The translations under genes were made by a program, and so were the position numbers. Below the pieces are notes generated by a model, which made no database searches, was not told the origin of the DNA, and saw only the letters and a list, made by a program, of their open reading frames with translations. From a virus (taxonomy: Duplodnaviria; Heunggongvirae; Uroviricota; Caudoviricetes), in IMG/VR virus record IMGVR_UViG_2568526230_000010: a stretch of 44,797 bases of DNA; one strand, given 5' to 3'. This document shows, piece after piece, positions 1 through 44,797 of this stretch; within the stretch, counting starts at the first letter, position 1; each line of letters opens with the position of its first letter.

Positions 1-516
1 ATGAAATTTAAAAAATGTCTTCTGCCTGTGGCAATGTTAGCGTCATTCACTCTGGCAGGATGCCAGTCAAATGCTGATGATCATGCCGCCGATGTTTATC
101 AAACCGATCAACTGAATACCAAACAAGAAACTAAAACCGTTAATATTATTTCCATTCTTCCCGCAAAAGTTGCCGTAGACAACGCCCAAAATAAACGGAA
201 CGCACAAGCCTTCGGCGCGCTTATTGGCGCTGTCGCTGGCGGTGTTATCGGCCACAACGTCGGGTCTGGCAGCAATTCCGGAACGACGGCAGGTGCAGTT
301 GGCGGCGGAGCTGTAGGCGCGGCAGCGGGTTCTATGGTGAATGATAAAACCTTAGTGGAAGGTGTTTCTTTAACATATAAGGAAGGCACCAAAGTGTATA
401 CCTCCACCCAAGTGGGTAAAGAGTGCCAGTTTACGACAGGTTTAGCCGTTGTTATTACCACGACGTATAACGAAACGCGTATTCAGCCAAATACCAAATG
501 TCCTGAAAAGAGCTAA
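1..516 (+). CDS. yfgH: Host-flank outer-membrane lipoprotein with glycine-zipper domain
   Basis: ATG at position 1; signal peptide ending in lipobox LAGC; Gly/Ala-rich glycine-zipper segment GALIGAVAGGVIGHNVG; 171 aa. Symbol inferred from product class, size and the adjacent 179-aa secreted protein, not from a search. Confidence 0.6.
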   Translation: MKFKKCLLPVAMLASFTLAGCQSNADDHAADVYQTDQLNTKQETKTVNIISILPAKVAVDNAQNKRNAQAFGALIGAVAGGVIGHNVGSGSNSGTTAGAVGGGAVGAAAGSMVNDKTLVEGVSLTYKEGTKVYTSTQVGKECQFTTGLAVVITTTYNETRIQPNTKCPEKS

Positions 517-531
517 TAATCAGGAGGAGTC

Positions 532-1071
532 ATGAAGAAAGTTTTTCTTTGCGCCATCTTAGCCTCCTTAAGCTATCCGGCTATCGCCTCATCATTGCAG
601 GATCAACTCTCGGCTGTCGCAGAAGCGGAACAGCAAGGTAAAAATGAAGAGCAAAGGCAGCATGACGAATGGGTCGCGGAGCGCAACAGGGAAATCCAGC
701 AAGAGAAGCAACGTCGCGCAAACGCCCAGGCCGCGGCTAATAAAAGAGCGGCAACGGCAGCAGCGAATAAGAAAGCTCGTCAGGATAAACTGGACGCCGA
801 AGCCACTGCGGACAAAAAACGCGATCAAAGTTATGAAGATGAGCTACGTAGCTTAGAGATTCAGAAACAAAAACTGGCGCTGGCGAAAGAAGAAGCCCGC
901 GTTAAGCGCGAAAACGAATTTATCGATCAGGAACTGAAGCACAAAGCTGCGCAAACCGATGTGGTGCAATCTGAAGCTGACGCAAACAGAAATATGACTG
1001 AAGGCGGTCGCGATCTGATGAAAAGCGTGGGTAAAGCAGAAGAGAATAAATCAGATAGCTGGTTTAACTAA
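532..1071 (+). CDS. yfgI: Host-flank secreted K/E/Q/A-rich coiled-coil protein
   Basis: RBS AGGAGG 6 nt upstream; cleavable signal peptide (…AIASS); 179 aa, low-complexity charged helical sequence; followed by a strong terminator. Symbol inferred from size and neighbourhood only. Confidence 0.55.
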   Translation: MKKVFLCAILASLSYPAIASSLQDQLSAVAEAEQQGKNEEQRQHDEWVAERNREIQQEKQRRANAQAAANKRAATAAANKKARQDKLDAEATADKKRDQSYEDELRSLEIQKQKLALAKEEARVKRENEFIDQELKHKAAQTDVVQSEADANRNMTEGGRDLMKSVGKAEENKSDSWFN

Positions 1072-1110
1072 ACGATGTTAGTAACTTCAAACCTATAATT
1101 CTTTAGGATA

Positions 1111-1142
1111 AAAAACCCTCTGTAGTAACAGAGGGTTTTGTT
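1111..1142. terminator. Bidirectional rho-independent terminator
   Basis: 10-bp perfect stem AACCCTCTGT/ACAGAGGGTT with loop AGTA, A-tract 5' and T-tract 3', directly after the stop of the 532..1071 gene. Confidence 0.7.
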
Positions 1143-1161
1143 CATTCATAGTGCAGGGTCA

Positions 1162-1260
1162 AATCATTCCCACTCAATTATTTACGGACACCATAACTAA
1201 TTGAGTGATAACATTTTTCCAAAGATGAATTTTTCTCGTACCGTTTTATATACCGTCACC
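1162..1260. other. Candidate att core and P' arm (start of attL/attP identity)
   Basis: First bases shared by the left junction and the inter-copy junction; contains 10-bp inverted repeat CACTCAATTA (1171-1180) / TAATTGAGTG (1198-1207) and the 11-mer ATACCGTCACC (1250-1260) that recurs in the opposite arm at 40954-40964. Confidence 0.35.
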
Positions 1261-1288
1261 GGAAATCAGTACCATGAAAAATGCCATG

Positions 1289-1771
1289 CTATCTGGTCAG
1301 TGTGTCGTACTGTTTTTCGCAGACTCTTCCGGCTTCGGCTGCCCGGTCAGCATACTCTGCCAGTTGTCTGTTTCTCTCGAGAGATTTGCTGAGCACGTCG
1401 GCAAGCAAAACTCCGGTGTCTGCGGCTGACGTCCCAGCGCCGACAATGGCGTTATACTGCCTGAGCTGCTCACGGATGGCAAAGAGTTGTTGCTGCAACC
1501 TGCCAGCGCGAGCGGCAGCATCAAGAGCATCGCTGCGCGCCTGCTCGATCCTCTGCTGCGCTTCACGTTCATTGGTCGCTTTCTCCTGTTCGTAGTGCTG
1601 ACGAACTTTTTCTTCTTCGGCTTTGCGGTCTTCTTTCGCCTGCGCATACCCGGCGTCGTACTGACGACTGCCGTGTGCATTCCAGGCTACAACTCCTGAT
1701 ATGACCAGAACAGCAAGCATCGCCATGATAACCAACTGTTTCCAGTATGCTTTTACGAATGCCCAGATCAT
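1289..1771 (-). CDS. Rz-like inner-membrane spanin
   Basis: 160 aa; N-terminal TM helix then Q/E/R/A-rich coiled coil; last gene of the lysis cassette, overlaps the endolysin stop by 4 nt. Confidence 0.75.
1297..1530 (-). CDS. Rz1-like outer-membrane lipoprotein spanin, embedded in Rz in the +1 frame
   Basis: Internal start gives [12 protein letters not shown]… with lipobox LAGC and a Pro/Ser-rich 77-aa product lying entirely inside the Rz ORF, as in lambda Rz/Rz1. Confidence 0.6.
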   Translation of the reverse strand: MLLMLPLALAGCSNNSLPSVSSSGSITPLSALGRQPQTPEFCLPTCSANLSRETDNWQSMLTGQPKPEESAKNSTTH

Positions 1772-2397
1772 ACCGCTAGCGCCTTACTGGCAGTGATGTA
1801 CCGAGCGCGCCGGTCGTCGATGCCGTTCCTGCCACCATTGATAATCAGAGTTACACGTGCAATATCGCCGGTATACTTCATGCAGCCTTTGCTGGAGAAA
1901 AACCACGCCGCGCTACGAGCTGCATATTCGTCCTGCGCCAGCAGTTCAGGATTCTCCAGCAGGTCCACTTTCAGGCCGTTTCCGCAGTCACGATAGTTAT
2001 TCAAACCGGTAATCTGGATAAGTCCGCGCCCACGGTAATTCCATCCATCGCCTGGGGCATTGTTACCCATGCGTTTGCTGTACACCAGATTTGCGATCGC
2101 GCGCTGGCGCTCGAGTTGCAATGGTGGTTCACCAGCACGGCGACCCAGTGCGTTGGCCTGTCCCTGAGTGAGACGTCCTGCCCGAACAAAGTTAGCCAGT
2201 CCTGTGACACTGTAGTTGAAATTCTCCTGCAACCTGGTGAAGCCACCAGACTCATGCCCGACTTGAGCAATAAACATTGCCTGATCTTCTGCTTTGCTGA
2301 TACCAAACTCTTTCATTGCAGAAGTTATATGCGAGAACCAGCGTGCGGCCAGCGCCTCGCTAATACCAGCAGCTCGCTGGAATTGTTTAATCTCCAT
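1768..2397 (-). CDS. Endolysin, glycoside hydrolase family 19 (chitinase-like lysozyme)
   Basis: 209 aa; motifs [12 protein letters not shown] and [12 protein letters not shown] typical of GH19 phage endolysins; sits between holin-like genes and Rz. Confidence 0.8.
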
Positions 2398-2695
2398 GTT
2401 TAGACCTCGTTATCTTGAAAATCTGAACGACGTTACCGCGAGTTTTAAGAACCGCAGCAAGCATGACAGCGTTGATAATGACCTCAGATAAATCCACAGC
2501 CATTGGCGTGCGTAACCAGATTGCATAGGCGACTCGAACAGGAATACTGGCCGCAGCAACAATCAGGAAATAAGCAAGCCATCCTCCCCACCTTCGATGT
2601 TGAGAGCCGTTACGCCGGAATGTGACAACGCGAATTGCTATGCCAGTGCAAATAACTGCATTGGTGATAAGCAAAAAAAACTCATGCGTTACCAT
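2387..2695 (-). CDS. Holin-like small membrane protein
   Basis: 102 aa with hydrophobic TM segments and a charged C-terminus; overlaps the endolysin start. Confidence 0.5.
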
Positions 2696-3086
2696 CGTCT
2701 TTTCTCCCCGGAATTAACTCGCGTGGATTATCGGAACGGTGATAGAGCCATATACCAATACGCACAGCGACAATTGCTGACACAAATGCGCCTGCAGAGA
2801 AAACAATCCCTTTTTCAAAAGAGTCCTGCGTGATGGTAGGGATCAGGCTGGCTATGCCGATAAGAATTGATGCTGCTGGTTTGTAAAAGAGAAGGCCGCA
2901 AAGAAAGCTGAGCATCGACAGGAGCACCCGGCGACGGATGGGGTACTCTACTGCAGAGGTAACAAAAATTACCGCCCCAGCCAAAGCCCCTAAAGCAACC
3001 TCCGGAGGGACACCTGCAATAACCGCAGCAAGAGAACTAACACTAAGCCACTGATTTGAAGTTTCATTGGTTAGTTGGAATGACAT
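2682..3086 (-). CDS. Holin/antiholin-like multi-TM membrane protein
   Basis: 134 aa, three to four hydrophobic helices; first gene of the lysis cassette, downstream of the tailspike. Confidence 0.5.
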   Translation of the reverse strand: MSFQLTNETSNQWLSVSSLAAVIAGVPPEVALGALAGAVIFVTSAVEYPIRRRVLLSMLSFLCGLLFYKPAASILIGIASLIPTITQDSFEKGIVFSAGAFVSAIVAVRIGIWLYHRSDNPRELIPGRKDDGNA

Positions 3087-3158
3087 AACGAAACCCGTTT
3101 ATTTGCAAACACCCTGCTTCAGGAAAAGTATACCGCGCAACAACACACCATTTACGGT

Positions 3159-5621
3159 TCAATTCCCTGTTAATTGCAAAACTTGCTCTTCCAGCTTTTT
3201 AACCCTGCGTCTCATCATCGCAGATTCCAGAATCAGAGCCTCTTCATAACGGATACCGTAACATTCACCAGCCTCGACGGCTTCGCGTACCAGAACCTTT
3301 GTCTGTATAAGTGGGTAAACTCCTGCAGAATGCTCTTCTTCCGTCACATCCCTGTATTCTGCCGGGGTCTCATTCCACTTGTCATAACAGATAAATGCCA
3401 GTCGTGACACATCTATGCCTTCATTCTGAAATACACTGATAACATGCTGCGCAACTGCACCAAAGTGCCATCTTGCTCCGTCTTTACCTTTCACTTCGAT
3501 CCTGTCAAGGTACTGGTATGAAACCCATTCCACTCTTTCCCATGCGTCCAGTATTTTCTCATCAATAACCTCTGGAGCAGTCTTGAAACGCGCATCGGAC
3601 AGCACCGTAAACGCTGACTGGGTAAATCCCCCCGACCATGCACGACCAGCCAACCCAAGAGAATAAGTATTCGTTGTCGATGGTGTCATGGCTGAATCAG
3701 AAAACTGTATATATTCTGAATTTCCAGTAGATATTCGAATATTTCCATTTATTAGCGACATAGTGCCTTTAGTATTATCACTATTGAATAATTTCAATTG
3801 CGAACTTATACCGCCTCCCACAGCCAGAGATACATCGCCTTCAGCAAGCATTCTGAATTTATCTGCAGAAACAAGCGTCTGGTTAGCAAGGTTAAAATAT
3901 TTAACCCACCATTCAAAACGCCCTGACATAGTCCCAACGTACTGACCAAGCGCAGGGACGTGAACAACATTGCTATTTGTAGTGCCGTCTATACTGGAAA
4001 TACCAGTCACCGCTGATGCAGAACTCAGAATATTATTTCTGTCACCAGGATGTTTAATTTCAACAAAGTTCCTGATACACCCTTCCTCGAAGGTAACCAC
4101 GCCGGAAGAACTATACATGGGGAATATTGACGCATAATTACTGCGTGCAGCATCTAAGAAACGAATGGTTGTAGATGTCTGCAGATCTCCTGATTCATTT
4201 TTCCCATCACACCCAGTCATTAGAATATTACTGGCAATATTATTATTTCCCTGAACGGTGACGCCGTGCGCCTGCTTTGCGTCCGATTCAGAGTAATCAA
4301 CCAGCACATCCGAAATCAGGTTACCAGTCCCCTTGCCAACAACTACTGCGGCGTATTTTGGGTTGTTAGCCATTACACTGCTAATGATATTATTCGTTGG
4401 GGCAGTTTCCGTCTCAGTTCCATTGTAAACAACGTGCTGACACTCTTCACCAATAACATTGCTGACAATGTTATATTTTGCTGCTGTTTTAAGTTCCACT
4501 GCACCAAACTGAGGATAATTTCTGGCTATCACACCATCAATTAGCGTATTTTGCGATGAATCAAAAAGCACACAACCTGCTTTTTTATTATTTGCGAACC
4601 CTAAATACTCTCCTCTTATATCTCTAACAATGTAACCTGACGGAATACCATTATTCGGATAAGCGATCAAGCTAAATCCTGTTCCTCGCGTATTTGTAAA
4701 TCTGATATTTTTAACCGATACATCATGGCCACCTGAAAATGACACCTGGTGTCCCTGCACACTATCATCTGATTTATTTCCCATAATTGTTAGCGTACTA
4801 AGCATGCCACCATCGGGCATGTTAAAAACCAGATGATTACCATCTCTGTCATACTGTTTTATCGTTCCCCCACCTGTTCCGTACAAGCCACAACGTGAAA
4901 GAGAAACTAAAGATGTATTGAATACCCCTTCCGGAACAAAAACACTGCTAAACGAATGTAATGATTTTGTAAAAGCATCCTTGTTATCATTTAAGATTCC
5001 ATTTTGAGCTCCAAAATCCTTAATGCTGACACCATCACGCATCTTATCCTGGAACGTTCTGTATACCGCTCCAGAACCATACTGAATAAACCAACCAAAA
5101 CCACCAATAACTCCGGCGATTGCAGCATCGACATAATTACGCATTGAGCGATTATTTACAGCGTCCTGCTCAAGTGATGGATCGGCAAGGTTAGATATTC
5201 TGTTTTGCTTTGCATCGTAATATTTTGCAAGCAAAGATGGTTTCATCAATGCACGTCTGAACAACCCAAAACATCGCTGGATCAGCATCGTCAGGTAGTC
5301 AAATGCATCCTCATGAACTTCGGGGAAAAATTTTCCCTGATTGCGAAGATCAGTCTCCTGCACCACATCAAGCACACGCTCTATCGTGATTCGCCAGCCA
5401 GCAGCAAGCGGCGACGGAAGAACCACTGCACCGCCACTATAAGTTCCCGCCCCTGTTACCGTATAACCAGCATCCAGCACTAGTTTTGTAACGTTACCGT
5501 TAAGGTCAGACACCTGAACAACCAGGTCGGATTTTTTGAAAATACGGAAGGTATACGGAAATGATGTCGTAACGCCGTTACCTGTGTATTCGTTGTGGTC
5601 AACTTCGGTTGAGACCGTCAT
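3159..5621 (-). CDS. Tailspike with beta-helix and C-terminal intramolecular chaperone (S74-type autoproteolytic) domain
   Basis: 820 aa; conserved podovirus particle-binding N-terminus; long Gly/Asn/Ser/Thr-rich repetitive middle; C-terminal 150 aa ending in a coiled coil resembles endosialidase-type chaperone domains. Confidence 0.8.
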   Translation of the reverse strand: MTVSTEVDHNEYTGNGVTTSFPYTFRIFKKSDLVVQVSDLNGNVTKLVLDAGYTVTGAGTYSGGAVVLPSPLAAGWRITIERVLDVVQETDLRNQGKFFPEVHEDAFDYLTMLIQRCFGLFRRALMKPSLLAKYYDAKQNRISNLADPSLEQDAVNNRSMRNYVDAAIAGVIGGFGWFIQYGSGAVYRTFQDKMRDGVSIKDFGAQNGILNDNKDAFTKSLHSFSSVFVPEGVFNTSLVSLSRCGLYGTGGGTIKQYDRDGNHLVFNMPDGGMLSTLTIMGNKSDDSVQGHQVSFSGGHDVSVKNIRFTNTRGTGFSLIAYPNNGIPSGYIVRDIRGEYLGFANNKKAGCVLFDSSQNTLIDGVIARNYPQFGAVELKTAAKYNIVSNVIGEECQHVVYNGTETETAPTNNIISSVMANNPKYAAVVVGKGTGNLISDVLVDYSESDAKQAHGVTVQGNNNIASNILMTGCDGKNESGDLQTSTTIRFLDAARSNYASIFPMYSSSGVVTFEEGCIRNFVEIKHPGDRNNILSSASAVTGISSIDGTTNSNVVHVPALGQYVGTMSGRFEWWVKYFNLANQTLVSADKFRMLAEGDVSLAVGGGISSQLKLFNSDNTKGTMSLINGNIRISTGNSEYIQFSDSAMTPSTTNTYSLGLAGRAWSGGFTQSAFTVLSDARFKTAPEVIDEKILDAWERVEWVSYQYLDRIEVKGKDGARWHFGAVAQHVISVFQNEGIDVSRLAFICYDKWNETPAEYRDVTEEEHSAGVYPLIQTKVLVREAVEAGECYGIRYEEALILESAMMRRRVKKLEEQVLQLTGN

Positions 5622-5725: not shown

Positions 5726-5740
5726 TTACCTTTCAGGTAA
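5726..5740. promoter_or_regulatory. Operator-like palindrome TTACCTTTCAGGTAA (perfect 6-3-6)
   Basis: Perfect inverted repeat in the divergent region between the tailspike and the accessory island; one of 13 family members. Confidence 0.5.
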
Positions 5741-5777
5741 TTTGCAAAACGTGCTGGATAGCAAACAAATTATTTGC

Positions 5778-5797
5778 TACTGTATAAATATACAGTT
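5778..5797. promoter_or_regulatory. LexA (SOS) box TACTGTATAAATATACAGTT
   Basis: CTGT-N8-ACAG with an AT-rich spacer, matching the enterobacterial SOS-box consensus at 19 of 20 positions; 21 nt upstream of the ATG at 5818. Confidence 0.7.
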
Positions 5798-5817
5798 ATT
5801 GCATGGAGAAGATTAAG

Positions 5818-6075
5818 ATGCAGCAGTATCACTATCCACTGGAAGACGGATTTACCGAAAGGATTCACACGCCGGGAGGCGTCAGGTCACTGGTGGAGGG
5901 ATCGCACTTGATGAAATTACTCCGGGATCTCGATAAGGATGGATTTAATGTCGATGGCCCACTTGCCGAACTGACTGCACTGATTAACTACGTCACCAGC
6001 TCACAGATGTCTATGCAGGATCTGCAAACACATCTCGACTATTGTGCCGAACAATTACGAAAACAAACCAGATAA
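5818..6075 (+). CDS. Small protein homologous to the C-terminal domain of the downstream antirepressor-like protein
   Basis: 85 aa; RBS GGAG 9 nt upstream; IHTPGGVRSLVEGSHLMKLL…MQDLQTHLDY aligns with IHSPSGVLGLTENSLLMNLL…LRDIQTHAEY in the 6889..7608 product. Confidence 0.6.
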   Translation: MQQYHYPLEDGFTERIHTPGGVRSLVEGSHLMKLLRDLDKDGFNVDGPLAELTALINYVTSSQMSMQDLQTHLDYCAEQLRKQTR

Positions 6076-6106
6076 GGTTTGAAATTACCAAATGGAGTGC
6101 TTATAT

Positions 6107-6121
6107 TTACCTTTGCGGTAA
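6107..6121. promoter_or_regulatory. Operator-like palindrome TTACCTTTGCGGTAA inside a hairpin
   Basis: Family member with one mismatch, lying in the loop of the inverted repeat GGAGTGC (6094-6100) / GCACTCC (6131-6137) just after the small-gene stop. Confidence 0.4.
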
Positions 6122-6147
6122 ATTTACATCGCACTCCTCTTGTGCCA

Positions 6148-6240
6148 TAGTAATCGGGCACTGGCAAAATCCAGTGCCGGGATTGGCGTCCCGGATTACT
6201 AGTAGGCGCATACCACGCCAGACGTGGTTTTTTTATGCGT
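6148..6240 (+). ncRNA. Candidate structured small RNA: tRNA-like three-way junction plus intrinsic terminator
   Basis: 8-bp closing stem TAGTAATC/GATTACTA encloses hairpins GGCACTGG-CAAAAT-CCAGTGCC and GGGA-TTGGCG-TCCC, followed by terminator ACCACG-CCAGA-CGTGGT plus T7; no credible ORF on either strand. Confidence 0.4.
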
Positions 6241-6389
6241 ATAGCACAGTCATATCCGAATTATGGTGGGCTGGGCAGGGGCACCGAAAGGTGCGCCGGT
6301 ACCTACTAGGCCGGTACGCCAACCTTGTCCAGTTCACCACCAGCAATTGGCGTTGCGGTGGTGGGTAACTTACTAGTAGAGGTATCGCT

Positions 6390-6896
6390 ATGCCAGGCCA
6401 AAAAATCTCAAACGACGATCTGTATTGGTTAATTTCTAATTCTCCACTCCTTCTTATGCTAAGGCAAGAAAGTGCACCACTGGTCAGTGAATTGATTAGC
6501 TGTAGAAATAGAATGTGGGATGAAGGGGCAGATTTAGATACCAATTTGTTTGATCATCTTATGCAACTAGCAGTCGATAACAAGGCAAAACTACGCTCTG
6601 AATACAACGCTTATCCAGAAATAGCAAAATACCTTAACGCTGAAATACTTGGTGGACCAGGTCAACCAGACCTAAAAACAAAAGATGGTTACCCTGTTGA
6701 GGTGAAGGTAGATACTTTTTCTCCTTCAGCATTAAAACAATTATTAAGGTATATGGATGCTTCTGGCGCAGATTTTGGTTTTGCTTGTGCAAAAACTCTT
6801 TCTGTAAAACTCCCTGAAAACATAAAGTTCATCCAGTTAGATTATAAAGATAATTGCTATTTCGTCGTGAAAGATGGAGGCAATGAAAATGCGTAA
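6390..6896 (+). CDS. Hypothetical protein, AT-rich accessory gene coupled to the antirepressor-like gene
   Basis: 168 aa; RBS GAGGT 5 nt upstream; lower GC than flanking phage genes; its end overlaps the start of the next gene. Confidence 0.55.
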   Translation: MPGQKISNDDLYWLISNSPLLLMLRQESAPLVSELISCRNRMWDEGADLDTNLFDHLMQLAVDNKAKLRSEYNAYPEIAKYLNAEILGGPGQPDLKTKDGYPVEVKVDTFSPSALKQLLRYMDASGADFGFACAKTLSVKLPENIKFIQLDYKDNCYFVVKDGGNENA

Positions 6897-7608
6897 TATA
6901 GCTATTGATAAGTTGCCGATAACAACTCATTGCAACATCCCTGTAATGACTACAGAAATGCTTGCTGATTTGTATGACACAGAACCCAAACTGATTCGTC
7001 AAAACTATCAACGAAATGCAGATCGATTCATTGAGGGAAAACATTGTTTCAAGCTGATAGGCGAAGAATTACGAGCATTTAAGAACGAGTCCTCTCAAAG
7101 AGGTTTGCTTAATATTGCACCAAAAGTAAGTCATCTTTTCTTATGGACCGCTCGCGGTGCAGCACGACATGCGAAAATTCTTGAGACTGAAAAAGCGTGG
7201 GAGGTCTTCGAAAAACTGGAAGATTGCTACTTCGACAGAAAACCCGCAAATGTCAGTGGAGATGTTCGTCTCTCAGGTGGAGCTGATTTATCAAAGGCCA
7301 CTCAGGTAATTGAAAAATTCATGCCCGCCATTATGGAGGCGATCAAGCTGGAAGACAAAAAAGAATACAGTGCCCCACTGAAGCCCGGCTACCGCAGCCT
7401 GATTCATTCTCCGTCTGGTGTTCTCGGCCTGACGGAGAACTCACTGCTGATGAATCTGCTGAACCAGTTACAGGAAGACGGGCACGACGTATCGGGCGCG
7501 GCGGCGGAGCTGACCACCATGTTCTGCTACATCGTCGGTGTGAGCAAATGCCTGCGTGATATCCAGACCCACGCGGAGTACATCAACGACAAGGCAGGGT
7601 TCTTCTGA
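6889..7608 (+). CDS. Antirepressor-like protein with N-terminal ORF6N-type DNA-binding domain
   Basis: N-terminus fits the ORF6N pattern (VMTTEMLADLYDTEPKLIRQNYQRNADRFIEGKHCFKLIGEEL); C-terminal domain is a paralog of the 5818..6075 product. Start placed at the ATG 8 nt after GGAGG; the ORF track starts at 6874. Confidence 0.65.
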   Translation: MRNIAIDKLPITTHCNIPVMTTEMLADLYDTEPKLIRQNYQRNADRFIEGKHCFKLIGEELRAFKNESSQRGLLNIAPKVSHLFLWTARGAARHAKILETEKAWEVFEKLEDCYFDRKPANVSGDVRLSGGADLSKATQVIEKFMPAIMEAIKLEDKKEYSAPLKPGYRSLIHSPSGVLGLTENSLLMNLLNQLQEDGHDVSGAAAELTTMFCYIVGVSKCLRDIQTHAEYINDKAGFF

Positions 7609-7680: not shown

Positions 7681-7695
7681 TTACCTCAAGGGTAA
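7681..7695. promoter_or_regulatory. Operator-like palindrome TTACCTCAAGGGTAA
   Basis: Family member with one mismatch, between the antirepressor-like stop and the toxin module; followed by hairpin ACGGATT/AATCCGT. Confidence 0.4.
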
Positions 7696-7755: not shown

Positions 7756-7935
7756 ATGCGAAACGAAAAATTGCAGATGCGTAGAGCGCAAGCTGCCGCA
7801 AGACGTTCTTTCAATGGAAGCGTAGAGTACGTAAAAGTTACTATGACAAAAGATCACGCAAGTCGCGTATCCCGCGCTTTCTTTGATTCTCGTAACAATA
7901 AGGAAAATTATGAGTTCGTCTGCGTCGCAGAATGA
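7756..7935 (+). CDS. Small basic protein, candidate antitoxin or regulator partner of the YafO-like toxin
   Basis: 59 aa, below the ORF-track cutoff; RBS GAGGT 6 nt upstream; Arg/Lys-rich; its 3' end overlaps the toxin start by 26 nt. No Phd/YefM/YafN-like signature recognised. Confidence 0.35.
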   Translation: MRNEKLQMRRAQAAARRSFNGSVEYVKVTMTKDHASRVSRAFFDSRNNKENYEFVCVAE

Positions 7936-8455
7936 TAAAAATCAAATTGTCAGATATAAGGGTCGAGTGTTGCATACGCAAAATTTCTCGGCCCTTTGTG
8001 CATCTGATCTTGAGCTGAAGAAAGTATCTGATGCCTTTACCCAGTATTGGAAAACGGGATACCATCCATCTCTTGGTAAAGATGCTGCATTTGCTCGTCC
8101 GACAGAAATGCTTAAACTAAATGTCAGGCATACTCATGTCGATAACCAAGACTATATTCCAGAAGATAGTGATAAAAAACACACTGGTAAAAAATCATCT
8201 TGGGATGCATGGAAAAATATAGCGTCTGTACAAGTAAAATGCATACCAACAAGTGATTGCTTTTTAGTTTATTCGGTAAATCACAATCGTGATGCGCTGG
8301 TTATGTTTTTTGTTGACGCAGATGCTCACAACATAACTGAGCAAGAAGAGTTTAAAGAGGAAGCAATCACTATCAGTTATCAATTCTTTGAGAAAACAAA
8401 AACAGAACCAATGCCTTTAGAAGAAGATCTTTTTTCTGATAAATGGAAGGAATAG
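7910..8455 (+). CDS. YafO-family toxin homolog (ribosome-dependent mRNA interferase family) with C-terminal extension
   Basis: Aligns by eye with E. coli YafO as recalled: FTQYWKTGYHPSLGKDAAFARP vs FISYKRDGVLPDIFGRDALYD, LNVRHTHV vs ERVAHIHL, CFLVYSV…ALVMFFV vs AHLVYCQ…AWLLIAI. Start at the ATG with RBS AAGGA; AT-rich; followed by a terminator. Confidence 0.65.
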   Translation: MSSSASQNDKNQIVRYKGRVLHTQNFSALCASDLELKKVSDAFTQYWKTGYHPSLGKDAAFARPTEMLKLNVRHTHVDNQDYIPEDSDKKHTGKKSSWDAWKNIASVQVKCIPTSDCFLVYSVNHNRDALVMFFVDADAHNITEQEEFKEEAITISYQFFEKTKTEPMPLEEDLFSDKWKE

Positions 8456-25137: not shown

Positions 25138-25152
25138 TTACCCTTCAGGTAA
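25138..25152. promoter_or_regulatory. Operator-like palindrome TTACCCTTCAGGTAA next to a TTGACA -35 element
   Basis: Family member with one mismatch; TTGACA at 25116-25121 lies 16 bp upstream, in the divergent region between the portal operon and the tRNA. Confidence 0.4.
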
Positions 25153-25474: not shown

Positions 25475-25551
25475 GTGGCATTAGCTCAGTTGGACAGAGC
25501 AACCGCCTTCTAAGCGGTTGGTCGCAGGTTCGAATCCTGCATGCCACGCCA
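25475..25551 (+). tRNA. tRNA-Arg (anticodon UCU), phage-encoded
   Basis: Cloverleaf folded by hand: acceptor GTGGCAT/ATGCCAC, D-stem GCTC/GAGC, anticodon stem ACCGC/GCGGT with loop CTTCTAA, T-arm GCAGG-TTCGAAT-CCTGC, discriminator G and encoded CCA. Acceptor stem differs from host argU as recalled. Confidence 0.85.
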
Positions 25552-35214: not shown

Positions 35215-35799
35215 ATGAAAAGTATCCAGGACGTCCGCAGGCAAAATCTCAACGACTTGATCGACCGTGAATTCAATGGTGTTCAGACGCGGATGGCAGA
35301 AAAACTTGGAACTCAGGCAAATCTGGTAAACCGCTGGGCTCTTGGCAAGAAGGTTATCGGCGACCAGGTTGCGCGAAAAATTGAAGCTGCCGCCAATAAA
35401 CCACGTAACTGGCTTGATATCGATCGCTCGCTTTCTCAGGAAGGTTTTCAGCCTGTCGGCCCAAGCGACATTGGTCAGCTGGCGGCTCACAACCTGGAAC
35501 GCTGGATGAGCGAAAGCCGCGACCTTTCAACTCAGGGAAAACTTCACCGCGCATCCGGCGTCGCCCAGGTGACAATCAGCCGCCTGTTAAACAATGAGGT
35601 CAGTGTTTCCATTTCCACCCTGGAGAATGTTGCATCAGCATTCGGGCGTCACGGCTATGAATTACTGATTCACCCGCACGACCCTGCGACCATCAACTAT
35701 GACCGCTCGCGCTACGCATTGTTACCCGAAACCGAGAAAGCAAAGATCGAAAGTTACATTGAATTTGTCATCAACCAGAACGAAAAAAACAAACAATAA
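35215..35799 (+). CDS. Prophage repressor candidate with two HTH (XRE-type) motifs and no S24 peptidase domain
   Basis: 194 aa; HTH-like segments near residues 20-45 and 105-135; no Ala-Gly cleavage site or Ser/Lys peptidase domain seen; own terminator downstream. Confidence 0.6.
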   Translation: MKSIQDVRRQNLNDLIDREFNGVQTRMAEKLGTQANLVNRWALGKKVIGDQVARKIEAAANKPRNWLDIDRSLSQEGFQPVGPSDIGQLAAHNLERWMSESRDLSTQGKLHRASGVAQVTISRLLNNEVSVSISTLENVASAFGRHGYELLIHPHDPATINYDRSRYALLPETEKAKIESYIEFVINQNEKNKQ

Positions 35800-41087: not shown

Positions 41088-41214
41088 AATCATTCCCACT
41101 CAATTATTTACGGACACCATAACTAATTGAGTGATAACATTTTTCCAAAGATGAATTTTTCTCGTACCGTTTTATATACCGTCACCGGAAATCAGTACCA
41201 TGAAAAATGCCATG

Positions 41215-41697
41215 CTATCTGGTCAGTGTGTCGTACTGTTTTTCGCAGACTCTTCCGGCTTCGGCTGCCCGGTCAGCATACTCTGCCAGTTGTCTGTTTC
41301 TCTCGAGAGATTTGCTGAGCACGTCGGCAAGCAAAACTCCGGTGTCTGCGGCTGACGTCCCAGCGCCGACAATGGCGTTATACTGCCTGAGCTGCTCACG
41401 GATGGCAAAGAGTTGTTGCTGCAACCTGCCAGCGCGAGCGGCAGCATCAAGAGCATCGCTGCGCGCCTGCTCGATCCTCTGCTGCGCTTCACGTTCATTG
41501 GTCGCTTTCTCCTGTTCGTAGTGCTGACGAACTTTTTCTTCTTCGGCTTTGCGGTCTTCTTTCGCCTGCGCATACCCGGCGTCGTACTGACGACTGCCGT
41601 GTGCATTCCAGGCTACAACTCCTGATATGACCAGAACAGCAAGCATCGCCATGATAACCAACTGTTTCCAGTATGCTTTTACGAATGCCCAGATCAT
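41215..41697 (-). CDS. Rz-like spanin (copy 2)
   Basis: Protein identical to the 1289..1771 product. Confidence 0.75.
41223..41456 (-). CDS. Embedded Rz1-like lipoprotein spanin (copy 2)
   Basis: Identical to the 1297..1530 ORF. Confidence 0.55.
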   Translation of the reverse strand: MLLMLPLALAGCSNNSLPSVSSSGSITPLSALGRQPQTPEFCLPTCSANLSRETDNWQSMLTGQPKPEESAKNSTTH

Positions 41698-42323
41698 ACC
41701 GCTAGCGCCTTACTGGCAGTGATGTACCGAGCGCGCCGGTCGTCGATGCCGTTCCTGCCACCATTGATAATCAGAGTTACACGTGCAATATCGCCGGTAT
41801 ACTTCATGCAGCCTTTGCTGGAGAAAAACCACGCCGCGCTACGAGCTGCATATTCGTCCTGCGCCAGCAGTTCAGGATTCTCCAGCAGGTCCACTTTCAG
41901 GCCGTTTCCGCAGTCACGATAGTTATTCAAACCGGTAATCTGGATAAGTCCGCGCCCACGGTAATTCCATCCATCGCCTGGGGCATTGTTACCCATGCGT
42001 TTGCTGTACACCAGATTTGCGATCGCGCGCTGGCGCTCGAGTTGCAATGGTGGTTCACCAGCACGGCGACCCAGTGCGTTGGCCTGTCCCTGAGTGAGAC
42101 GTCCTGCCCGAACAAAGTTAGCCAGTCCTGTGACACTGTAGTTGAAATTCTCCTGCAACCTGGTGAAGCCACCAGACTCATGCCCGACTTGAGCAATAAA
42201 CATTGCCTGATCTTCTGCTTTGCTGATACCAAACTCTTTCATTGCAGAAGTTATATGCGAGAACCAGCGTGCGGCCAGCGCCTCGCTAATACCAGCAGCT
42301 CGCTGGAATTGTTTAATCTCCAT
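41694..42323 (-). CDS. GH19 endolysin (copy 2)
   Basis: Protein identical to the 1768..2397 product. Confidence 0.8.
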
Positions 42324-42621
42324 GTTTAGACCTCGTTATCTTGAAAATCTGAACGACGTTACCGCGAGTTTTAAGAACCGCAGCAAGCATGACAGCGTTG
42401 ATAATGACCTCAGATAAATCCACAGCCATTGGCGTGCGTAACCAGATTGCATAGGCGACTCGAACAGGAATACTGGCCGCAGCAACAATCAGGAAATAAG
42501 CAAGCCATCCTCCCCACCTTCGATGTTGAGAGCCGTTACGCCGGAATGTGACAACGCGAATTGCTATGCCAGTGCAAATAACTGCATTGGTGATAAGCAA
42601 AAAAAACTCATGCGTTACCAT
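42313..42621 (-). CDS. Holin-like membrane protein (copy 2)
   Basis: Identical to 2387..2695. Confidence 0.5.
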
Positions 42622-43012
42622 CGTCTTTTCTCCCCGGAATTAACTCGCGTGGATTATCGGAACGGTGATAGAGCCATATACCAATACGCACAGCGACAAT
42701 TGCTGACACAAATGCGCCTGCAGAGAAAACAATCCCTTTTTCAAAAGAGTCCTGCGTGATGGTAGGGATCAGGCTGGCTATGCCGATAAGAATTGATGCT
42801 GCTGGTTTGTAAAAGAGAAGGCCGCAAAGAAAGCTGAGCATCGACAGGAGCACCCGGCGACGGATGGGGTACTCTACTGCAGAGGTAACAAAAATTACCG
42901 CCCCAGCCAAAGCCCCTAAAGCAACCTCCGGAGGGACACCTGCAATAACCGCAGCAAGAGAACTAACACTAAGCCACTGATTTGAAGTTTCATTGGTTAG
43001 TTGGAATGACAT
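42608..43012 (-). CDS. Holin/antiholin-like membrane protein (copy 2)
   Basis: Identical to 2682..3086. Confidence 0.5.
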   Translation of the reverse strand: MSFQLTNETSNQWLSVSSLAAVIAGVPPEVALGALAGAVIFVTSAVEYPIRRRVLLSMLSFLCGLLFYKPAASILIGIASLIPTITQDSFEKGIVFSAGAFVSAIVAVRIGIWLYHRSDNPRELIPGRKDDGNA

Positions 43013-43084
43013 AACGAAACCCGTTTATTTGCAAACACCCTGCTTCAGGAAAAGTATACCGCGCAACAACACACCATTTACGGT

Positions 43085-44797
43085 TCAATTCCCTGTTAAT
43101 TGCAAAACTTGCTCTTCCAGCTTTTTAACCCTGCGTCTCATCATCGCAGATTCCAGAATCAGAGCCTCTTCATAACGGATACCGTAACATTCACCAGCCT
43201 CGACGGCTTCGCGTACCAGAACCTTTGTCTGTATAAGTGGGTAAACTCCTGCAGAATGCTCTTCTTCCGTCACATCCCTGTATTCTGCCGGGGTCTCATT
43301 CCACTTGTCATAACAGATAAATGCCAGTCGTGACACATCTATGCCTTCATTCTGAAATACACTGATAACATGCTGCGCAACTGCACCAAAGTGCCATCTT
43401 GCTCCGTCTTTACCTTTCACTTCGATCCTGTCAAGGTACTGGTATGAAACCCATTCCACTCTTTCCCATGCGTCCAGTATTTTCTCATCAATAACCTCTG
43501 GAGCAGTCTTGAAACGCGCATCGGACAGCACCGTAAACGCTGACTGGGTAAATCCCCCCGACCATGCACGACCAGCCAACCCAAGAGAATAAGTATTCGT
43601 TGTCGATGGTGTCATGGCTGAATCAGAAAACTGTATATATTCTGAATTTCCAGTAGATATTCGAATATTTCCATTTATTAGCGACATAGTGCCTTTAGTA
43701 TTATCACTATTGAATAATTTCAATTGCGAACTTATACCGCCTCCCACAGCCAGAGATACATCGCCTTCAGCAAGCATTCTGAATTTATCTGCAGAAACAA
43801 GCGTCTGGTTAGCAAGGTTAAAATATTTAACCCACCATTCAAAACGCCCTGACATAGTCCCAACGTACTGACCAAGCGCAGGGACGTGAACAACATTGCT
43901 ATTTGTAGTGCCGTCTATACTGGAAATACCAGTCACCGCTGATGCAGAACTCAGAATATTATTTCTGTCACCAGGATGTTTAATTTCAACAAAGTTCCTG
44001 ATACACCCTTCCTCGAAGGTAACCACGCCGGAAGAACTATACATGGGGAATATTGACGCATAATTACTGCGTGCAGCATCTAAGAAACGAATGGTTGTAG
44101 ATGTCTGCAGATCTCCTGATTCATTTTTCCCATCACACCCAGTCATTAGAATATTACTGGCAATATTATTATTTCCCTGAACGGTGACGCCGTGCGCCTG
44201 CTTTGCGTCCGATTCAGAGTAATCAACCAGCACATCCGAAATCAGGTTACCAGTCCCCTTGCCAACAACTACTGCGGCGTATTTTGGGTTGTTAGCCATT
44301 ACACTGCTAATGATATTATTCGTTGGGGCAGTTTCCGTCTCAGTTCCATTGTAAACAACGTGCTGACACTCTTCACCAATAACATTGCTGACAATGTTAT
44401 ATTTTGCTGCTGTTTTAAGTTCCACTGCACCAAACTGAGGATAATTTCTGGCTATCACACCATCAATTAGCGTATTTTGCGATGAATCAAAAAGCACACA
44501 ACCTGCTTTTTTATTATTTGCGAACCCTAAATACTCTCCTCTTATATCTCTAACAATGTAACCTGACGGAATACCATTATTCGGATAAGCGATCAAGCTA
44601 AATCCTGTTCCTCGCGTATTTGTAAATCTGATATTTTTAACCGATACATCATGGCCACCTGAAAATGACACCTGGTGTCCCTGCACACTATCATCTGATT
44701 TATTTCCCATAATTGTTAGCGTACTAAGCATGCCACCATCGGGCATGTTAAAAACCAGATGATTACCATCTCTGTCATACTGTTTTATCGTTCCCCC
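43085..44797 (-). CDS. Tailspike (copy 2), partial: N-terminal part lies beyond the window end
   Basis: Identical to the C-terminal 570 codons of 3159..5621; the reading frame stays open to the last base of the window. Confidence 0.75.
   Translation of the reverse strand, partial: GGTIKQYDRDGNHLVFNMPDGGMLSTLTIMGNKSDDSVQGHQVSFSGGHDVSVKNIRFTNTRGTGFSLIAYPNNGIPSGYIVRDIRGEYLGFANNKKAGCVLFDSSQNTLIDGVIARNYPQFGAVELKTAAKYNIVSNVIGEECQHVVYNGTETETAPTNNIISSVMANNPKYAAVVVGKGTGNLISDVLVDYSESDAKQAHGVTVQGNNNIASNILMTGCDGKNESGDLQTSTTIRFLDAARSNYASIFPMYSSSGVVTFEEGCIRNFVEIKHPGDRNNILSSASAVTGISSIDGTTNSNVVHVPALGQYVGTMSGRFEWWVKYFNLANQTLVSADKFRMLAEGDVSLAVGGGISSQLKLFNSDNTKGTMSLINGNIRISTGNSEYIQFSDSAMTPSTTNTYSLGLAGRAWSGGFTQSAFTVLSDARFKTAPEVIDEKILDAWERVEWVSYQYLDRIEVKGKDGARWHFGAVAQHVISVFQNEGIDVSRLAFICYDKWNETPAEYRDVTEEEHSAGVYPLIQTKVLVREAVEAGECYGIRYEEALILESAMMRRRVKKLEEQVLQLTGN

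Follow-up and report, generated by a model that had tools for sequence, protein, structure and literature searches.

Several described systems bear on the locus examined here. The antirepressor-repressor (Ant-Rep) system of Salmonella phage SPC32H, reportedly set out by Kim & Ryu in J Virol in 2013 and by Kim et al. in PNAS in 2016, is represented by the structures PDB 5D50 and 5D4Z. The immI operon of P1 and P7, said to have been worked out by Citron & Schuster in 1990, runs from the c4 antisense RNA through icd to ant1/ant2. In P22, immI is a second immunity region in which ant is under Mnt, Arc and the sar RNA, with the antirepressor beside the tailspike gene and an antisense RNA involved. 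Here we describe positions 5726..7608 of a 44,797-nucleotide stretch of DNA (IMG/VR record IMGVR_UViG_2568526230_000010), referred to throughout as the window. We hold it probable, on the evidence taken as a whole, that this segment is a prophage anti-immunity locus with two tiers, whose two modules end in paralogous copies of one repressor-binding domain: a LexA-gated Ant, and a long antirepressor controlled by C4 and IsrK RNAs in the manner of P1/P7 immI. The first module is recognised by homology; for the second, the anatomy can be read directly and the function is proposed from it.

In papers citing the original SPC32H work, Rep has a DNA-binding, a dimerisation and a C-terminal Ant-binding/tetramerisation domain (PMC9986798), and an Ant tetramer, synthesised after LexA cleavage, engages a pair of Rep dimers and takes apart the tetrameric, DNA-binding form of Rep (PMC9638917; PMC9986798; PMC7380047). 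For P1/P7, the logic of immI is summarised as that of a c4-icd-ant operon (PMC8198154). In Gifsy-1, read-through of the IsrK terminator yields an inactive mRNA that is activated in trans by short IsrK, and orf45 is coupled to anrP (Hershko-Shalev 2016, PMC4825925). The gfoA gene of that prophage lies near a dinI homologue, downstream of the replication genes (Lemire 2011, PMC3121763), and the isrK locus lies downstream of antQ (PMC4825925).

The small antirepressor and its long, fused paralog

The first gene of the locus, ant (5818..6075, plus strand), encodes an 85-aa stand-alone protein that falls in phrog_450 and matches chain E ('Anti-repressor protein') of PDB 5D50, the crystal structure of a Rep-Ant complex, over its full length (residues 2-84 against 3-85; phmmer, E 4e-47). 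A tblastn search of the phage collection matched it to 35 phage records, all epsilon15-like, among which the matching gene of SPC32H and SPC32N (88% identity) is annotated 'ant: anti-repressor protein'. The SPC32H protein also has the same length, and its gene likewise lies beside the divergent tailspike gene with a LexA box at the same distance. In a database clustered at 90% identity the small protein has 136 homologs (E <= 0.001), mostly of 85-86 aa among the matches listed, and the ratio of nonsynonymous to synonymous substitution rates (dN/dS) of 0.05-0.14 indicates purifying selection. The Shine-Dalgarno (SD) sequence, the LexA box and the position of the gene are conserved across genera. 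We identify the small protein, by homology, as the ortholog of the structurally characterised SPC32H Ant, a Rep antagonist. The family, which has no Pfam entry, is already known and structurally solved; Rep binding and tetramer disassembly are predicted for the member described here.

A sequence-only reading of the same DNA had placed the small gene under LexA control, and this claim is borne out by a near-consensus box at 5778..5797 on the plus strand (TACTGTATAAATATACAGTT; core CTGTATAAATATACAG, 5780..5795), 22 nt before the ant start codon. The box departs from the 20-nt consensus at 2 positions, and the 44.8 kb hold no other such site (0 expected by chance). In SPC32H, TL-2011b, phiV10, phiv142-3 and Tyrion, CTGT-N8-ACAG lies equally far from the start codon, and three more distant loci have ATGT-N8-ACAG instead.

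The long antirepressor gene (6889..7608, plus strand) encodes 239 aa and consists of an ORF6N domain (about 6919..7179), a disordered linker and an Ant-like C-terminal domain (C-domain; about 7360..7581). The longest open reading frame (ORF) starts at 6874 and would give 244 aa, but ATG 6889 is most likely the start, because a GGAGG lies 8 nt upstream of it and all database gene calls as well as RefSeq WP_001244090.1 agree on it. Pfam confirms the ORF6N domain that the sequence-only reading had named (PF10543, residues 16-102 of the 244-aa product; E 1e-18, 67.8 bits against a gathering score of 27.8). In PHROGs the long protein falls in phrog_1760 'anti-repressor' (E 1e-97), and its C-terminus also matches phrog_450. 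No second LexA box was found before the long gene in the window, and direct LexA control of the long gene was rejected for that reason.

The kinship of the two proteins had been proposed from the sequence, and it is real. Both ORFs are present (5818..6075, 85 aa; 6874..7608, 244 aa), and BLASTP aligns residues 2-75 of the former with residues 163-236 of the latter without gaps (31/74 identities, 42%; E 4e-16). The Smith-Waterman score of 164 compares with 27.1 +/- 4.3 (maximum 61) over 2000 shuffles, a z of 31.8, and the blocks IH-P-GV--L-E-S-LM-LL and TH--Y form the conserved core of the family alignment. The long C-domain also matches 5D50_E on its own (phmmer, E 5.5e-14). An AlphaFold2 (AF2) model of the long protein, built from a 41-sequence alignment, has an N-terminal domain (N-domain; residues 1-114), a linker (116-134) with a predicted local distance difference test score (pLDDT) <50, and a helical C-domain with pLDDT >90. 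Structure prediction likewise upheld the kinship: the top Foldseek matches of this model were 5d50_E/G/H (target-normalised template modelling score, TM, 0.83; root-mean-square deviation, rmsd, 1.2 A; probability 1.00), there was no other convincing PDB match, and the shortness of the domain accounts for a weak E-value (0.02). A tblastn search of the window found no third copy of the domain. The small gene had been taken for a free copy of the repressor-contacting module, which it is, and also for an accessory of 'the' antirepressor, which it is not, since it is the SPC32H Ant ortholog.

Among relatives of the long gene the C-domain is near constant and the N-domain is swapped. ORF6N heads occur in the window and in Salmonella, Citrobacter, Klebsiella and Yersinia prophages, AntA heads in phiv142-3 and many E. 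coli prophages, Bro-N heads in phiV10, TL-2011b and ZX5, and a Phage_pRha head in one distant locus. The long C-domain is under purifying selection (dN/dS 0.10-0.26). The Ant-domain family is small, with 45 matches in an exhaustive HMMER search of 1.84 billion representatives, made up of stand-alone proteins of 82-95 aa and C-terminal fusions; a word-indexed search with the C-domain alone gave mostly fragments, and the full-length and exhaustive representative searches were more informative. We read the long protein as an add-on in which an Ant-like C-domain is fused to a head that can be exchanged, the ORF6N domain being one such accessory.

Two relatives depart from this pattern. A frameshift within the Ant-like C-domain breaks the long gene of phiV10 (locus L003, 3287..3966) into two parts (p23 + p22), so that phiV10, the type phage of the E. 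coli group, is probably without a functional second antirepressor. Escherichia phage HEMP4 has an extra gene for an AntA + Ant-C-domain protein between its methyltransferase and integrase genes (locus L011, 2498..3285). The C-domain encoded there is 100% identical to that of the window and the gene is preceded by an Rfam match to sRNA-Xcc1 (62.9 bits), not by C4, so that HEMP4 has a third gene of the Ant-domain kind, with a small RNA of another family in control.

The RNA module between the two genes

The sequence-only reading had suggested a two-tier arrangement. The arrangement itself stands, and what falls is the view of the second tier as a mere full-length gene downstream, since that gene has a promoter-like region and an IsrK/C4 switch of its own. 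The promoter-like region (6107..6151, plus strand), called in a promoter scan, consists of a palindrome (TTACCTTTGCGGTAA, 6107..6121), a -35 element TTTACA (6123..6128) and a -10 element CATAGT (6146..6151). The series of palindrome, TTTACA, N17, CATAGT, 7 nt and IsrK 5' end is conserved in 7/7 related loci. It leads into an IsrK-like small RNA (sRNA) of an Hfq-binding family (6158..6234, plus strand; Rfam RF01394, 68.1 bits, gathering score 50). Within this RNA, complementarity marks a first set of C4 targets, TTGGCGT (6183..6189) and CTAGTAGG (6199..6206), both on the plus strand, and its intrinsic terminator (stem 6212..6228 followed by a T run) is the only plus-strand terminator in the gap. 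The family c4-a1b1 ('a1,b1 targets of C4', RF03163) overlaps IsrK at 6145..6197 with 45.1 bits (gathering score 46.7).

The C4 antisense RNA itself follows (6259..6344, plus strand; Rfam RF01695, full model, 76.7 bits, gathering score 45), and its minimum-free-energy (MFE) fold agrees with the Rfam model. Its recognition elements, on the plus strand, are a hairpin loop, a' (CCTACTAG, 6302..6309), and a single-stranded stretch, b' (ACGCCAA, 6316..6322). The loop has exact complements at 6199 (8 nt) and at 6373 (CTAGTAG, 7 nt), and b' has exact 7-nt complements, TTGGCGT, at 6183 and 6347. The second target set (6347..6382, plus strand) thus holds TTGGCGT at 6347..6353 and CTAGTAG at 6373..6379, the latter contiguous with an SD sequence, GAGG (6379..6382), which stands 7 nt before ATG 6390.

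That ATG opens orf168 (6390..6896, plus strand; phrog_18738, E 6e-119), a leader ORF in the position of P1 icd and Gifsy-1 orf45. Its end, with the stop TAA at 6894..6896, overlaps the start of the long gene at ATG 6889 (ATGCGTAA), and from this arrangement the two appear translationally coupled. Likeness to P1 Icd is one of position: in the searches run, orf168 has no detectable relation to known families, with no match in Pfam, NCBIfam, PADLOC or PDB sequences and no tblastn match among some 50,000 deposited phage genomes. In a distant Yersinia-like locus (L008) a 170-aa homolog with 46% identity overlaps an ORF6N-type long gene; because the homologous pair also occurs there, orf168 and the ORF6N long gene look like a travelling cassette.

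Protein-coding calls also cover the RNA genes. A 108-aa ORF (6042..6368) with no Pfam match overlies IsrK and C4, the corresponding DNA of ZX5 and of Hafnia phage yong2 carries coding sequences labelled 'Ash family protein', and the N-terminal extension of P0152 reads through C4. Proteins called across IsrK/C4 DNA are probably misannotated RNA genes.

The same combination recurs in related phages. IsrK and C4 lie just upstream of the long gene in TL-2011b, phiV10, phiv142-3, Klebsiella phi3.2 and Enterobacter Tyrion, and SPC32H, which is without the long gene, has neither. Phages of Escherichia, Enterobacter and Klebsiella share the order of minus-strand tailspike gene, small ant, IsrK, C4 and long gene, which recurs in two distant loci, found via Rha-type and Yersinia-like ORF6N-type long proteins, despite a small protein only ~40% identical to that of the window. 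TL-2011b (L002) has a 1.1-kb insertion (3497..4585) between ant and IsrK/C4, which breaks a possible read-through from ant into IsrK, and further downstream (7440..7507) it carries a match to a P22-type sar RNA (44.8 bits, gathering score 43).

In six aligned phages the C4 loop, target 1 and target 2 change together, giving five 'a' alleles and two 'b' alleles. The window joins the loop CCTACTAG to CTAGTAGG as target 1 and CTAGTAG as target 2; phiv142-3 has the loop CCACTTAG and CTAAGTGG at both targets, and phiV10 and TL-2011b share the loop CCTTTTAG and CTAAAAGG at both. The Klebsiella phage has the loop CCGTTTAG with CTAAACGG as target 1 and CTAAGCGG (one G-U) as target 2, and Tyrion the loop CCTTTGTAG with CTACAGAGG and CTACAAAGG, respectively. 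The 'b' alleles are TTGGCGT/ACGCCAA or TTGGTCT/AGACCAA, matched three ways. In a specificity matrix, the longest Watson-Crick helix spans 7-9 bp for cognate partners in all cells but one and 3-6 bp between phages of different alleles; the exceptional cell is the SD-proximal site of the Klebsiella phage, where one G-U wobble must be allowed for the helix to span 9 bp. Even E. coli phages with 100% identical Rep proteins differ in their C4 alleles.

Set against the described systems, the locus joins traits that occur apart elsewhere. SPC32H and epsilon15 have neither IsrK nor C4 nor a long Ant-domain protein, the small gene being the only Ant-domain gene in each. As in P1/P7 immI, a C4-family RNA lies on the same transcript as its target, with two recognition elements and targets both upstream and downstream; the downstream targets lie over the ribosome-binding site (RBS) of a leader ORF whose reading frame runs into the antirepressor gene; and, as between P1 and P7, where C4 specificity overrides shared primary immunity, allelic C4 specificities occur among phages sharing a primary repressor. 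The effector domain, however, is SPC32H-Ant-like and probably unrelated to that of P1/P7, a LexA-controlled paralog lies immediately upstream, and the window phage is a podovirus that integrates into the chromosome. With Gifsy-1 the window shares an IsrK-family sRNA with a leaky terminator, a C4-like RNA region and a leader ORF coupled to an antirepressor-like gene, and Gifsy-1 also has a small LexA-controlled antirepressor, GfoA, so that it too has two tiers (PMC3121763). The two Gifsy-1 antirepressors are not described as related, whereas those of the window share one domain and lie adjacent, with the ant transcript predicted to run into IsrK. The long protein is likened to AnrP of Gifsy-1 by the description of the locus.

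In E. coli phage vB_EcoP_ZX5 (ZX5), a sister phage, ORF4 ('anti-repressor') is the long form at the same locus, with a Bro-N head and no orf168. A term search of the ZX5 paper, the one experimental study of a sister phage, gave no mention of LexA, and the passages it returned were without the small gene and without a C4 or IsrK RNA; as far as these passages go, the long gene only was studied and the small Ant went unrecognised (PMC9782041). From P22 immI the window differs in its proteins and RNA family, and P22 has no LexA-controlled paralog.

The repressor, the proposed switch and competing explanations

The repressor candidate named in the sequence-only reading, 35215..35799 (plus strand), matches 5D50 chain A, 'Repressor', with E 4e-42 over residues 1-190 (phmmer), which makes it rep, the gene of the cognate repressor that both Ant domains presumably target. 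Its product is 100% identical in 13 records of the phage collection, including phiV10, phiv142-3 and ZX5; SPC32H has a homologous Rep, 42% identical over the full length, which is a different allele.

A palindrome, TTACC-N5-GGTAA, occurs in 10 exact 15-nt copies in the window (5726, 6107, 7681, 25138, 28283, 32796, 32858, 35145, 35857 and 35919) against 0.02 expected. One copy (TTACCTTTCAGGTAA, 5726..5740) lies upstream of ant as a candidate operator of the phage repressor; others abut the -35 element of the IsrK promoter (6107), precede the next operon (7681) and lie in the rep-cro intergenic region (35145), and two pairs (32796/32858 and 35857/35919) are spaced 62 bp apart. SPC32H has 10 copies at equivalent places, including the ant-tailspike and rep-cro intergenic regions, and a copy stands upstream of the small gene in 5/8 related loci. 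The palindrome is probably the Rep operator, and since a copy precedes each module, the two promoters may also be under Rep or some other phage regulator. The copy at the IsrK promoter is centred near -44, a place from which either repression or activation would be possible.

On the reading we prefer, DNA damage would remove LexA, Ant would be made, Rep would be inactivated and the prophage induced. In the second module, its own promoter-like region would drive the IsrK-like sRNA and, through the leaky terminator, C4, orf168 and the coupled long gene. C4 would pair via its two short elements with the site that covers the RBS of the first ORF, as in P1/P7 immI; orf168 would stay untranslated and, through coupling, so would the long antirepressor, keeping it off in lysogens. 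Because it carries a second copy of the same two C4 targets, the IsrK-like RNA can act as a decoy or activator, comparable to IsrK/anrP in Gifsy-1. Once C4 control is escaped, through a superinfecting relative with non-matching targets or an excess of IsrK-bearing RNA, the long protein would be made and its Ant-like domain would inactivate the same Rep.

A further step, in which the two modules are wired together, is more tentative. The stretch from the ant stop codon (6075) to the IsrK terminator (6212..6228) holds no terminator of its own, so SOS-derepressed ant transcripts would carry IsrK and target 1 at their 3' end. Such read-through RNA might titrate C4, or have the activating effect of IsrK on the mRNA, and so turn on the long antirepressor as a feed-forward lock on induction; this coupling of the second tier to the first is speculative. 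Independently of this, long Ant might be expressed from a superinfecting relative with a non-matching C4 allele and inactivate the Rep of the resident, allowing the newcomer to grow and the resident prophage to be induced. That the modules are joined by feed-forward and that C4 alleles also make E. coli Uetakevirus prophages of identical Rep mutually heteroimmune, as P1 is to P7, is an extension that we think less likely than not.

Inactivation of Rep by the long protein through its Ant-like domain is the step at which explanations diverge. The C-domain resembles Ant in fold as well as in sequence, which favours an action on Rep, as do three further observations. In the phage collection the Ant-like C-domain is confined to records that also carry the small Ant, nearly all with a Rep homolog too, and its divergence tracks that of Rep (identities to the window for Rep, small Ant and long C-domain are 78, 85.5 and 73% in Tyrion and 45, 62 and 54% in the Klebsiella phage). 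In ZX5, whose Rep and small Ant are identical to those of the window and whose long C-domain is 92.5% identical, overexpression of ORF4 with its Bro-N head lowered lysogens from ~10^9 to 10^6, about 1000-fold, and rep transcripts by 75% (PMC9782041). We consider it unlikely that the long protein instead spares its own Rep, its C-domain serving to oligomerise a DNA-binding regulator or being aimed at repressors of other prophages or at a host protein. All four alternative N-domains (ORF6N, Bro-N, AntA, Rha) are phage regulatory domains of DNA-binding type, the long C-domain has diverged to 42% identity from Ant, and Salmonella offers documented cases of antirepressors directed at foreign repressors (PMC3121763); yet among E. 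coli phages with identical Rep the constant part is the C-domain and not the N-domain, and the ZX5 long form lowers lysogeny of ZX5 itself.

The sequence-only reading had also raised a dominant-negative relationship, for which we find no support. In that case, or if hetero-oligomers formed, the small domain would co-assemble or compete with the long protein and damp its action on Rep, which we think very improbable. SPC32H Ant acts as a tetramer (PMC9638917), so paralogous domains could mix in principle, and the two genes are adjacent and their pairing is kept across genera. In epsilon15 and SPC32H, however, the small gene is present alone, and annotation as well as crystal structure treat its product as the antirepressor proper. 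The two paralogs are only 37-42% identical within a genome and look anciently diverged, identities of small protein and long C-domain within genomes (22-37%) being no higher than between genomes, although a seven-sequence set does not cleanly separate a small clade from a long clade. This makes co-assembly less likely. Different signals, LexA and C4 RNA, fit parallel inputs rather than mutual inhibition. Decay of the small ORF into a functionless fragment after duplication of the long gene, to which its match to only the C-terminal third of the long protein and its RefSeq label 'hypothetical protein' might point, deserves next to no credence, since it spans the full length of a crystallised functional protein, is under the purifying selection reported above, keeps its SD sequence, LexA box and position across genera and has numerous homologs.

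Several points weigh against the two-tier reading itself. The promoters are matches to consensus only, and the consensus promoter scan called no sigma-70 promoter for ant; the c4-a1b1 match is just below its gathering score. At 42% identity the long domain could have a different target from that of its paralog, and binding of the long protein to Rep is inferred. The phiV10 frameshift means that the long gene is dispensable for a viable phage, and the orf168 leader is not general, the long gene directly following C4 in 5/6 phages compared. By analogy, finally, the switch may work by C4 repression as in P1 or by IsrK activation as in Gifsy-1.

Prophage setting and meaning of the locus

By its sequence the window is an E. 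coli prophage of phiV10 type, epsilon15-like and of the genus Uetakevirus. Roughly half of the DNA of 5600..7700 matches phiv142-3, TL-2011b, ZX5, phiV10 and relatives, at 91-96%. Positions 1..1161 are E. coli chromosome (the yfgH/yfgI side, close to guaA). There are two copies of the att core ATTGAGTGGGAATGATT, at 1162..1178 and 41088..41104, and 41088..44797 is 100% identical to 1162..4871. The window would accordingly hold one 39,926-bp prophage, after which comes not host DNA but the opening 3.7 kb of another copy in tandem (or an attP-type junction). As 1..1161 belongs to the host, wrapping of a circular genome was rejected as the source of the repeated ends.

Downstream of the long gene, behind the palindrome at 7681, lie a 59-aa and a 190-aa ORF (7756..8455). 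The 190-aa product has a Pfam match to YafO toxin (E 9e-6) and is named type II toxin-antitoxin YafO-family toxin in RefSeq, and the pair is a possible toxin-antitoxin moron. A tRNA gene (25475..25548; Rfam, 73.3 bits) lies near the palindrome copy at 25138, with a tRNA-Arg at the equivalent place in SPC32H.

At least part of the 2-kb stretch occurs in 532/5426 complete E. coli genomes, about 1 in 10, and the exact orf168 + ORF6N variant in 21 of the 5426. RefSeq labels small Ant and orf168 hypothetical, and neither RNA is annotated. The ingredients are of known kinds: the small Ant family, an RNA module with Rfam families and the architecture of P1 immI and Gifsy-1 isrK, and ORF6N, AntA and Bro-N 'antirepressors' as commonplace annotations. 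The full texts searched held no description of the long-protein effector domain as a paralog of SPC32H Ant, of side-by-side paralogs under LexA and C4, respectively, or of C4 alleles that vary among phages of one Rep, which is not proof of novelty; the pairing of an SOS-controlled Ant with a second copy switched by antisense RNA seems not to have been described previously.

Taken together, one repressor-binding domain used twice, once under LexA and once under an allelic antisense-RNA lock, offers a testable model of prophage induction, and the same model covers how relatives with the same repressor could overcome each other's immunity. The occurrence of ORF6N, AntA, Bro-N and Rha on one effector domain also constitutes a natural swap series for probing the enigmatic N-domains of phage antirepressors.

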